From positions 1 to 64,000 of IMG/VR virus record IMGVR_UViG_3300049043_000244: DNA of 64,000 nucleotides; one strand, written 5' to 3'. A model generated the notes under the pieces. That model made no database searches. It saw nothing but the letters and a program-made list of their open reading frames with translations, and was not told the DNA's origin. Of the stretch, positions 13,854 to 42,647 are shown piece after piece; the first letter of the stretch is position 1; each line of letters begins with the position of its first letter. A program made the translations under genes and the position numbers. The DNA is from a virus.

Positions 13854-13925
13854 AGCCCCGACTGGATTTGAACCAGCGACCAACGGTTTACAAAACCGTT
13901 GCTCTACCACTGAGCTAGCAAGGGC
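13854..13925 (-). tRNA. tRNA-Thr(TGT)
   Basis: D-arm GCTCAGTGGTAGAGC; anticodon arm ACGGT-TTTGTAA-ACCGT; T-loop GGTTCAAATCC. Confidence 0.92.
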
Positions 13926-13949
13926 AAATTTGTATAATATGTATACGAG

Positions 13950-14032
13950 TAGGAGCGGGGGGACTTGAACCCCACGGGCATACGCCCAACAGATTTTAAG
14001 TCTGGTGTGTCTACCGATTCCACCACGCTCCC
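13950..14032 (-). tRNA. tRNA-Leu(TAA)
   Basis: GGGAGCGTGGTGGAATCGGTAGACAC; anticodon arm CCAGA-CTTAAAA-TCTG; long variable arm GGGCGTATGCCC; GGTTCAAGTCC. Confidence 0.92.
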
Positions 14033-39886: not shown

Positions 39887-40523
39887 TCACCATTCAAGCC
39901 TCAGAAACTGAAGGAAATTGTTGTTTAAAAACTTCTTTACAATCAAGAGCAATATCCATATGTTCTTTCTGAGTTCCATGAGCAGAACGAAGGTTGATAT
40001 AATGAATCCAGTCTACCGACAAGATCCCGTCATATAGATGCGTGTGGGGGTCGCCAAGGGCAATACAAACCTCGCGCACTCCTTTGCTACCCCAGCTCCA
40101 ACATCCTCTTGTAGAGGTTATTAGAGTGCGTAAACAGTTCAGCAATTTCTGTCTGAAATTTGAGTTTTACATAATCACCAAGATCATCTGTAGAATTTTG
40201 ACGATTCTTGGTGTCCTGACGACGAAGATCGGGAATCGGGATGTTTTCCGTCAATAAGGTAGTAATCAGCGATATCGTTGAGAGAACTCTTGAAATGTGA
40301 AACTACGATGGCGTAGGATCTGTGCCTGCAATACCACGAGTCGTCTCAATCTCAAGGGTCATAGAAGACTGTCTCAAACACAGACCAATGATTATGCTTA
40401 ATACAATAAGCAATGCAACTTGGCATAGTTTTCGTTGTCTTGATTCGCAGGATTGCTAACTCGTGCAATAAACGCCATTGTTTTTTCTGCATCGGGAGTT
40501 ACCGAAATAAGTTTTACTGTCAT
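39887..40523 (-). CDS. thyX: Flavin-dependent thymidylate synthase (frameshifted)
   Basis: ARVSNP...HWSVFE...[17 protein letters not shown]...[17 protein letters not shown]. Confidence 0.9.
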
Positions 40524-40703: not shown

Positions 40704-40734
40704 GATTATGCATAATCTCTAACTATTTTACTAC

Positions 40735-40760
40735 AAAAAAAGGAGGGTGTAAACCCTCCT
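40735..40760 (-). terminator. Terminator closing the riboswitch cassette
   Basis: AGGAGGGT-ttac-ACCCTCCT followed by a T run on the minus strand. Confidence 0.8.
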
Positions 40761-40765
40761 GAGTA

Positions 40766-40865
40766 TCATCTCGTTCCAACTAAATGTACGATTTTCAGCT
40801 TGGTGACGACGATCTTCTTTTTGTTTTTGTTCTTTAATAAGTTGAAGGAAGTTAAGTTTTTTCAT
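40766..40865 (-). CDS. Small basic peptide (about 33 aa) coupled to DUF4278
   Basis: MKKLNFLQLIKEQKQKEDRRHQAE...; ATGA overlap with the upstream stop. Confidence 0.55.
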
Positions 40866-41026
40866 TTTAAACCTCCCTTTGACTTTTCCATTGAAAACTT
40901 ATATCCGTTTTCATCTACCCAGAACATCGTTCCACGATAGATTTCCACATGAGGTTCTCTTTTAAAAGTTTGGTTTGGGCGATCGTTGGTGTCATATTCC
41001 ACACCACGATATACGACTTTAGACAT
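40862..41026 (-). CDS. DUF4278-like protein, 54 aa (not in the ORF track)
   Basis: MSKVVYRGVEYDTNDRPNQTFKREPHVEIYRGTMFWVDENGYKFSMEKSKGGLK*; two YRG motifs; SD AAGGAG. Confidence 0.8.
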   Translation of the reverse strand: MSKVVYRGVEYDTNDRPNQTFKREPHVEIYRGTMFWVDENGYKFSMEKSKGGLK

Positions 41027-41057
41027 TAGGTTTCTCCTTAATTTTGAGGCTGAAGAG

Positions 41058-41230
41058 CGTTCCTTCAGTCGGCTTTTTGCGTCTATGAAAAACTTACAAG
41101 TCTTTGGAGATCCTTCTTTAAAAATCTGAATGAGTTCAGATCTTTCAGCTCATCCATTTTTAGTTTTACATTACCAATAAGTCTTTGACTTGTACACAAG
41201 TCCAGAGAATTGTTTCCATAGATGAACGAT
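41058..41230 (-). ncRNA. glnA-type glutamine riboswitch aptamer 2 with about 120 nt inserted in the P2 loop
   Basis: AUCGUUCA-UCUAUGGAAA[insert]UUUUCAUAGA-CGCAAAAAGCCGACUGAAGGAACG; P1 CGUUC/GAACG and a 10 bp P2. Confidence 0.65.
41065..41219 (-). CDS. Putative small ORF nested inside aptamer 2
   Basis: Starts METILWTCVQ; as read it stops after 17 aa, while another frame reads ERSELIQIFKEGSPKTCKFFIDAK; a peptide of about 50 aa needs indel corrections. Confidence 0.45.
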
Positions 41231-41276
41231 CCGTTCCGAGTCGGCTTACTTCCGTCTGGTTTTCCAGATGAACGAT
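41231..41276 (-). ncRNA. glnA-type glutamine riboswitch aptamer 1
   Basis: AUCGUUCA-UCUGG-AAAA-CCAGA-CGGAAGUA-AGCCGACU-CGGAACG: P1, P2 and the GGAAGUA junction of the glnA motif. Confidence 0.75.
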
Positions 41277-41282
41277 AGGAAT

Positions 41283-41312
41283 ATTATACTTCCCGTGATC
41301 TTATATAGTCAA
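41283..41312 (-). promoter_or_regulatory. sigma70-type promoter of the riboswitch cassette
   Basis: TTGACT-N18-TATAAT; predicted +1 near 41276, the first base of aptamer 1. Confidence 0.75.
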
Positions 41313-41319
41313 GTACTTT

Positions 41320-41335
41320 TGTAACTTTTGTTACA
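41320..41335. promoter_or_regulatory. NtcA binding site
   Basis: TGTAACTTTTGTTACA = GTA-N8-TAC with extended palindromic flanks, 8 bp upstream of the -35. Confidence 0.75.
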
Positions 41336-41930: not shown

Positions 41931-42647
41931 TTTAGATTGTACTAAGTACATCAATGGTCGGAAACCATCCAATACTTTTCATGAGAGAAATGTCTACAAC
42001 GTTGTCTTCCCTCTCTCCTGGAGTTTCTTCTAGAACTGGAAGATGTCCTTGTCCAAATGCTTTTCCAAGATCTCTTACAGAAACAGATTTTCCAGTTCCA
42101 ATCGTAACTGGGCCCAGTGATCATCACTACTTGCAAGATGCCGAATTGCACGACAAACATCTTTTACGTGAATCCAATCGCGTTTATGATTGGTTACATA
42201 TTTTGCCTTTCCGTCCTTTAATAGATCATACATCATGTTTCCACGACCACCAGGGCCGTAAACAGTTGTAAACCTCATACCAACTGAATTGGAGGAGCCA
42301 TTTGTTCATTAATCCACTTAGTCATCGCATATGGATTAGTCCAGTATCTTTCTTCAACTGCGCTTGAAGAAGCATAAAGAAGTCTAGTATTAGTTTTTCT
42401 ACACCACTCAAACAAAGGTTTTGCAAATGCAACATTGTTTTCGTAATATTTTTGAGGATTTTCTTGACTTTCACGAATGTCCGCATATGCAGCTAAATGA
42501 ATCACAAGATCATAATCTCCCCCAGAAAAATCTCTAACATCGTCTGGACGATCCAATCCAGTTACCCATTGATTATGAGTTTCTCTCCAATCATTAAAAA
42601 CATGTTTACCAATAAATCCTTTATGTCCAGGTGATTAAAACTTTCAT
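41931..42647 (-). CDS. NAD-dependent epimerase/dehydratase (frameshifted)
   Basis: MKVLITGHKGFIG; IHLAA; YASSS; YAMTK (YxxxK); RFTTVYGP; RDWIHV. Confidence 0.85.

Follow-up and report, generated by a model that had tools for sequence, protein, structure and literature searches.

The window (the whole 64,000-nt stretch of lake-type cyanophage DNA analysed here) contains, entirely on its minus strand, a glutamine-riboswitch locus in which a small reading frame is nested (Table 1). Transcription is predicted to start at ~41276, where the riboswitch begins, and relatives also have a TATAAT about 10 nt ahead of CGUUCA. Some 50 nt before this start lies the NtcA-box-like palindrome, a motif that also precedes the promoters of loci L001 and L003.

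The Rfam covariance model RF01739 matches positions 41276–41228(−) with 40.2 bits (gathering score, 35), and this match covers the first unit only, the P2 hairpin of which has a 4-nt loop, as described in the original prediction. The strand linking this hairpin to P3 provides the long-range ("linchpin") partner with its third base, G41252, and the 5′ half of the E-loop with AAGUA. Directly after the first aptamer, CGUUCA is followed by UCUAUGGAAA (41222–41213); about 121 nt further on come UUUUCAUAGA (41091–41082) and then CGC, A5, GCCGACU, GAAG, GAACG, and C (41081–41057). A second core is thus split by about 120 nt into halves at 41228–41213 and 41091–41057. The AUG of the nested frame lies in the 5′ strand of the second P2 (here P2′), and the GGAACG-G stretch of the upstream P1 3′ strand doubles as a purine-rich stretch before this AUG; both had been recognized at the outset. 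It had also been expected that standard covariance searches would miss a split aptamer of this kind, and cmscan indeed detects neither the split core nor RF01704, either in the window (even at E ≤ 10) or in L001–L004 (E ≤ 1).

The gene behind the riboswitch encodes a protein that matches phrog_5049 (E = 2e-9); against the DUF4278 family PF14105, its residues 3–33 score 20.1 bits (E = 8.6e-4), which is below the curated cut-off of 25.3 bits. DUF4278 genes are known behind glutamine riboswitches (PMC6212724), which matches the context in the window. The non-coding stretch between the aptamer and this gene, assigned here to the expression platform, is conserved at the nucleotide level in relatives. 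The 44-aa basic open reading frame (ORF) that follows overlaps the stop codon of the DUF4278-like gene (ATGA) and enters the intrinsic terminator (stem, 40760–40741; U-run, 40740–40735, minus strand); its true end is possibly affected by indels.

Table 1. Features of the locus in window coordinates. Core names follow the interlocked arrangement proposed in the text.
Feature	Position	Strand	Basis
NtcA-box-like palindrome, GTA-N8-TAC	41321..41334	-	Sequence; upstream of promoter
Sigma-70-like promoter: TTGACT 41312-41307, 18-nt spacer, TATAAT 41288-41283	41283..41312	-	Sequence
Outer P1 5′ strand, CGUUC (a0)	41270..41274	-	RF01739 alignment; invariant in 127 loci
Outer P2 hairpin, UCUGG-AAAA-CCAGA (H1), gene-free in window	41255..41268	-	RF01739 match; stem covaries in relatives
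Outer-core linking strand, CGG AAGUA	41247..41254	-	RF01739 consensus
Shared P3 5′ strand, AGCCGACU	41239..41246	-	8 bp with 41074-41067, two A.C mismatches
GGAACG plus G: inner-core P1 3′-type strand (b1) and long-range G	41231..41237	-	Sequence
CGUUCA, inner-core P1 5′-type strand (a1)	41223..41228	-	Sequence; RNAalifold
Inner P2 (P2′) 5′ strand, UCUAU(GGAAA), containing start codon 41219-41217	41213..41222	-	Sequence
Nested small-protein gene, frame-broken as assembled	41065..41219	-	Alignment with intact relatives; family dN/dS
Inner P2 (P2′) 3′ strand, (UUUUC)AUAGA, encoding F-I-D in the gene	41082..41091	-	Sequence; pairing across loci
CGC, inner-core linking strand, long-range C 41079	41079..41081	-	Pairs with G 41231
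Shared P3 3′ strand, AGCCGACU, overlapping last codons of nested gene	41067..41074	-	End-pair covariation
GAAG (E-loop 3′ half), GAACG (outer P1 3′ strand, b2), long-range C 41057	41057..41066	-	RF01739 consensus
Expression platform of downstream gene: CUCUUCAG 41057-41050 (putative anti-SD), SD AAGGAG 41039-41034	41034..41057	-	Inferred
DUF4278-like (IF17-like) gene, 54 aa, behind riboswitch	40862..41026	-	ORF; Pfam score below cut-off
44-aa basic ORF, then intrinsic terminator	40731..40865	-	ORF list, sequence

The nested gene and its protein family

The insert in the P2 hairpin is almost certainly a real small-protein gene. Whole-region alignment brings in the cultured Synechococcus phages DSL-LC03, S-SRM01, and DSL-LC02 (69–72% identity), each of which has an intact frame of 50–55 codons starting from the same AUG. 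A profile built from the nested proteins of these three phages leads to 341 IMG/VR loci and to 347 proteins at E ≤ 0.01, and an intact 50–60 aa frame is present at the same place in all 83 of the parsed loci selected in this way. In a second sample of 91 unique riboswitch loci, chosen solely by the junction motif CGGAACG-NNN-CGTTCAT, 61 loci have an insert of 137–194 nt, each with an intact frame of 49–66 aa, and the AUG in these loci is located 9–16 nt (nearly always 9–11 nt) past the start of CGUUCA. The repetition of this layout with an intact frame in both samples excludes chance. Among 42 unique members with 50 codons, dN/dS is 0.12 at a dS of 1.19, third codon positions vary while residues are fixed, and neither of the two remaining frames is open in any member. 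Frame conservation in homologous cyanophage loci and a dN/dS below 1, both of which follow from the original prediction, are thus found.

Two invariant Cys residues are common to the nested proteins, which match the profile of PHROG 504, a phage family of unknown function (E = 2.3e-24 for the L104 ORF, 3.3e-4 for L202, and 0.015 for P0007); these scores are those of relatives, the window copy being frame-broken and L202 being its closest intact relative. Marine nested ORFs match the same family at E = 2e-24. AlphaFold predicts a two-helix hairpin (pLDDT 82). A Pfam search with the nested protein gives no match, a Foldseek comparison of its model with the PDB gives none below E = 2.7, and an ESM Atlas search gives no usable match.

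These features bear on the original proposal that the locus is a hybrid of leader-peptide attenuation and riboswitch, in which a short peptide matters only through being translated and thereby decides whether the aptamer folds. The AUG is in a stem strand, the frame overlaps a regulatory RNA, and translation must disrupt the fold; the part of the proposal which holds that translation and folding are mutually exclusive therefore stands, by geometry. The attenuation part does not, and is highly improbable: purifying selection acts on the product, a conserved protein with two invariant Cys residues and not a short regulatory peptide of free sequence; this protein belongs to PHROG 504; its codons include no run of the regulatory type; and the leader sequence contains neither a terminator between the nested gene and the downstream gene nor a terminator/antiterminator pair.

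In the window itself the frame is broken. As read, the AUG frame gives 17 aa and then a stop codon, and another frame enters the ATG of the DUF4278-like gene, exactly as first reported. Compared with the intact loci L202:1886–2041 and L147:1697–1852 (both 52 aa), the window has one base missing near 41189|41188, a second base missing near 41148|41147, and a surplus A in A5 (41078–41074); it also shows a single in-frame 3-nt difference. Related metagenome contigs aligned to the window carry all three compensating indels. Correction of the three indels yields 51 codons that end at UGA 41067–41065, regain the family motif TC.QAQ together with both Cys residues, and terminate in ..IDAKAD. The earlier suggestions that A5 is really A4 and that the corrected peptide has about 50 aa and two Cys residues agree with both the intact relatives and the related contigs.

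The frame break is very probably an assembly artefact, because the indels occur precisely where the intact relatives and related contigs differ and because neighbouring genes are chopped as well: the Thy1 profile matches thyX (39909–40523, minus strand) in three pieces and two frames, and an epimerase-like gene (41951–42556, minus strand) is likewise cut into short frames. A decaying pseudogene, in which only the RNA structure with its perfect 10-bp P2′ has been kept, would explain why the frame ends after 17 codons, why three frame changes are needed to restore it, and why the P2′ stem is longer in the window than in the family. This explanation is improbable in view of the compensating indels in related contigs, the intact state of the close relatives L202 and L147, the recovery of the TC.QAQ motif and both Cys residues by just three corrections, and the indel-rich assembly that thyX and the epimerase-like gene indicate. 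As the contig looks indel-rich, its other broken genes should not be taken as pseudogenes. Two neighbouring tRNA matches are present at 13861–14032(−), one of which covers model positions 8–63 only and may be truncated or indel-damaged.

P2′ and the codons shared with the aptamer

Pairing of P2′ around the nested gene is highly probable. When the five bases after CGUUCA are set against the five before CG(C/G), the successive positions are paired in 112, 112, 112, 112, and 104 of the 112 unique ORF-bearing loci, and the helices differ in sequence (UCUAU/AUAGA, UCCCA/UGGGA, UCCUA/UAGGA, UCCCU/AGGGA, and wobble variants); the two P2 strands therefore covary, in keeping with the original prediction. 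Positions 6–9 are paired in just 25–58% of the loci. As only 5 bp are conserved and covary across relatives, the 10-bp P2 that was proposed to enclose about 120 nt, the complementarity of which is real in the window, represents a local extension of a 5-bp P2. An additional helix immediately interior to P2′, seen in the lake clade as GCACUC/GAGUGU, is not supported across loci, given the same pairing range at positions 6–9, and combinations of A/T with UGU/UGC do not covary.

The start codon of the nested gene lies in the 5′ strand of P2′, and its last codons and stop codon are the 3′ core of the aptamer itself. In nearly all of the 112 ORF-bearing loci, the frame extends into the aptamer core and the protein ends in ...DAND or ...DAKAD. 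The last six codons (AUA GAC GCA AAA GCC GAC) and UGA show near-zero synonymous change among 42 unique relatives, despite a dS above 1 elsewhere in the gene. The nucleotides of this 3′ core are identical in gene-free forms, e.g., that of S-CREM1, and in contigs in which a short hairpin replaces the insert, which indicates that the aptamer sequence is primary and that it dictates how the protein ends (..DAKAD or ..DAND).

The nested gene could be a passenger that occupies a permissive P2 loop only for space or for the shared promoter, with folding and translation exerting no selected influence on each other. Phage genomes are tightly packed, the P2 loops of gene-free forms vary in length and sequence, and different ORF subfamilies are hosted, even in the other hairpin, all of which would be expected of a passenger. 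The AUG, however, is always within or next to the 5′ strand of P2′ and not free in the loop, 9–16 nt past the start of CGUUCA, and nearly every frame enters the aptamer core; so constant a register over 112 loci suggests that the overlap is under selection. Whatever its origin, the cores must unfold when a ribosome translates the gene. The passenger explanation is considered unlikely.

Interlocked and side-by-side cores

The original prediction placed two aptamers side by side, which is probably wrong, since covariation favours interlocked cores with a shared P3 and swapped long-range pairs. From the sequence comparisons, it is probable that the locus encodes one RNA with two glutamine-binding cores arranged in this interlocked manner. 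The outer core would be of the canonical type-1 form (CGUUCA, hairpin, CGG-AAGUA, P3, GAAG-GAACG-C), with its P3 enclosing the inner core, and the inner core would be circularly permuted (GGAACG-G, 3-nt loop, CGUUCA, gene-holding hairpin, CGC).

The long-range bases are central to this arrangement. In the window, unit 1 has G both after CG and after GAACG, and unit 2 has C at both places, which makes these bases mismatched within their own unit and complementary between units: G41252 is complementary to C41057 (C:G or G:C in relatives), but forms a G.G mismatch with G41231, which in turn is complementary to C41079. In 143 unique loci, the four long-range bases are C,G,C,G (69 loci), G,G,C,C (66 loci), C,C,G,G (two loci), or one of a few other combinations. 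All 143 loci have a first linking base complementary to the last base, and in 70 it is complementary to the base of its own unit; the bases equivalent to G41231 and C41079 are complementary in 137 (G:C in 135), counts that, like the other sequence counts, overstate the support because the covariation comes from few clades and perhaps from three or four independent changes.

The E-loop is also divided between the units. A canonical core contains AAGUA as well as GAAG; here AAGUA (41251–41247) is confined to the first unit and GAAG (41066–41063) to the second. Only the interlocked reading brings the two E-loop strands (CGGAAGUA after P2 and GAAG before P1) into one core, and in the side-by-side reading each unit is left without one of them. 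The P3 strands that connect the units pair as AGUCG/CGACU, GGUCG/CGACU, AGUCA/UGACU, AGCCGACU/AGCCGACU (8 bp with two A.C), CGCCGACU/AGCCGACG, and GGACGACG/CGCCGCCC in different loci. Positions 3 and 6 of the 8-bp P3 remain mismatched (A.C or C.A) in the AGCCGACU/AGCCGACU and GGACGACG/CGCCGCCC backgrounds, and these mismatches may be functional non-canonical pairs.

An alignment of 24 gene-free forms gives a similar picture. The interlocked long-range pair (alignment positions 25–101) is paired in 24/24 (CG in 13 and GC in 11), against 13/24 for either side-by-side pairing. The P3 end pairs are AU (14), GC (6), and GU (3) at one end and GC (9) and UA (4) at the other; the side-by-side alternatives are paired in 13/24 and 4/24. 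RNAalifold recovers from these forms the outer P1, the first hairpin, the inner GAACG-loop-CGUUC hairpin (b1 with a1), and the second hairpin; the outer P1 and the inner hairpin are obtained unguided by both RNAalifold and RNAfold. Both CGUUC/GAACG strand pairs for P1 are present, a 5-bp P2 follows CGUUCA, and H1 and the gene-bearing P2′ covary. Because all four P1 strands are invariant in 127 loci, assignment of P1 partners from the P1 sequence is impossible, and only the long-range pairs, P3, and the split E-loop indicate which strands are partners.

The inner P1 would be closed by a 3-nt loop, the first base of which would also be needed for the long-range pair. The spacer between the units is 3 nt in 133/148. 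In L019, L025, L026, L028, L035, and L057, an extra small hairpin (ACCUA-CUUA-UAGGU) is located between GGAACGG and CGUUCA, which indicates that the proposed loop of the inner P1 tolerates an inserted stem-loop. The glutamine-II RNA has been crystallised as a domain-swapped dimer in which strands are exchanged at the same long-range pair (PMC6698751), so the exchange proposed here is physically possible.

The same comparisons allow evaluation of a simpler arrangement, in which the first aptamer alone regulates the small gene and no second core surrounds it; CGUUCA would then be part of the platform, and the 3′ "half" would consist of the C-terminus of the protein and the leader of the next gene. 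By itself, the first unit reaches 40.2 bits with RF01739, no covariance model detects the second, and short ORFs directly behind glutamine aptamers are known from the Downstream-peptide RNAs (PMC2864571). There is little probability that this arrangement applies: P2′ covaries across an insert of 137–194 nt, and the first unit taken alone would have G.G at the long-range pair in 66 loci, complementarity being restored only with the far 3′ base. In addition, P3 pairs connect the first unit with the far 3′ half, which is nucleotide-identical in gene-free forms, and synonymous sites are frozen in the last six codons.

Proposed regulation and relation to known systems

The combination of a nested gene in the P2 hairpin of a glutamine riboswitch, interlocked cores, and a glutamine-dependent mechanism is the preferred reading of the locus as a whole, with a probability of roughly 0.65. 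With glutamine bound, both cores would fold, and the folded inner core would bury the purine-rich stretch and the AUG, which would turn the nested gene off. As the ribosome-binding region of this gene (GGAACGG, spacer, CGUUCA, UCUAUG) lies wholly within the inner core, a folded inner core should block initiation. The outer core would capture C41057 and thereby free the SD of the DUF4278/IF17-like gene, turning the downstream gene on. This platform model is borrowed from gifB of Synechocystis, where the ribosome-binding site is paired with the base that follows P1 and with adjoining bases until glutamine binding releases it (PMC6212724); by analogy, C41057 is the first base of CUCUUCAG, which could pair with AAGGAG. 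Anti-SD and SD variants among the relatives yield no clear pairing rule for the downstream gene.

A ribosome on the nested gene would have to unfold P2′ and P3 and, on reaching the stop codon, the outer P1 as well. Translation and sensing would thus compete, and glutamine would be sensed only on untranslated leaders. Alternatively, the two genes could be coupled rather than opposed, because a ribosome terminating at UGA 41067–41065 would sit on the putative anti-SD. Reciprocal control of the nested and DUF4278-like genes by glutamine, which we infer, is plausible at slightly less than even odds. More tentative still is the full scheme of an interlocked two-core riboswitch, with one core circularly permuted, a single shared P3, and closing hairpins around genes, in which one ligand would flip translation from the nested proteins at low glutamine to the IF17-like protein at high glutamine.

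The outer core has the elements of the type 1 glutamine riboswitch, i.e., the glnA RNA (RF01739), as in the Synechocystis gifB/IF17 leader (PMC6212724): CGUUCA, a 5-bp P2, CGG-AAGUA, P3, and GAAG-GAACG-C in common. In that leader, too, the gene behind the RNA is DUF4278/IF17-like, and the SD can be paired by the base following P1 together with neighbouring bases. In the present RNA, in contrast, two units are needed to complete the canonical set of features, a permuted core lies within P3, and the P2 hairpin holds a whole gene.

The inner core resembles the type 2 riboswitch (Downstream-peptide RNA, RF01704; PMC6698751) in its CGC linking strand, its C:G long-range pair, and the lack of an E-loop. 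In the glutamine-II core structure (6QN3), the hairpin is followed by C17, G18, and C19, and C19 forms the long-range pair with G41, the base after GAACG (PMC6698751); the type 1 equivalent of this pair is G:C (PMC6698751; RF01739 consensus). The inner core differs from type 2 in that it has no RF01704 match and no P2 helix around the GGAACG strand, and in that the helix equivalent to the pseudoknot would be closed by a 3-nt loop (a circular permutation). Moreover, the short ORF follows the Downstream-peptide RNAs, whereas here the ORF is inside the RNA.

Tandem riboswitches, such as the glycine riboswitches and tandem glnA RNAs (PMC2864571), likewise have two cores for one ligand in one leader. 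Here, covariation favours interlocked over adjacent cores, and genes lie within the hairpins. Interplay between an upstream ORF (uORF) and a riboswitch is illustrated by the Mycobacterium tuberculosis B12 riboswitch (PMC11260477), where upstream translation and RNA folding reportedly compete on one leader, as they would here. Compared with leader-peptide attenuators and such uORF systems, the nested frame encodes a conserved family, is located in an aptamer stem-loop, and has codons in common with the ligand-binding core. A literature search did not return the present layout (a gene inside a glutamine-riboswitch hairpin, with interlocked cores); an earlier comment on tandem forms may exist. 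The PHROG 504 entry is silent on riboswitch context.

Gene-bearing stems in cyanophages

Riboswitch aptamers are usually treated as compact non-coding units ahead of genes. At the present locus, a complete protein gene under selection stands inside an aptamer stem and its last codons are common to the ligand-binding core. This is the common form in cyanophage contigs, as indicated by its frequency among the unique junction-selected loci (61/91), and standard scans see part of it only. If the proposed arrangement and regulation are correct, the locus would provide a concrete case of a ribosome and a metabolite competing for one RNA fold, as well as a natural example of circular permutation in an aptamer and a natural counterpart to the domain swap in the glutamine-II crystal. 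Phages would then apparently express small proteins of unknown function (PHROG 504 and relatives) according to the nitrogen status of the host, an IF17-like candidate regulator of glutamine synthetase would be added, and annotation pipelines would be miscalling the RNA as well as the small genes.

When 185,579 species genomes are scanned for the motif, true cases appear only on phage-looking contigs of metagenome-assembled genomes (MAGs) or draft assemblies, for example on a 194-kb "Synechococcus" contig that looks phage-derived. Contigs binned as Synechococcus, Euryarchaeota TMED129, Nonlabens, and uncultured bacterium (L207, L208, L211, L212, and L213) carry the phage-type riboswitch with the nested gene, and are probably mis-binned or contaminating cyanophage DNA.

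The outer P2 hairpin, which is a short hairpin in the window, holds an intact ORF of 59–75 codons in 38/116 unique relatives. These outer-hairpin ORFs (e.g., L016:1247–1450, L104:2394–2591(−), and L110:3509–3706) encode proteins with a hydrophobic N-terminus and two Cys residues, and their stop codon is often located in the 3′ stem strand.
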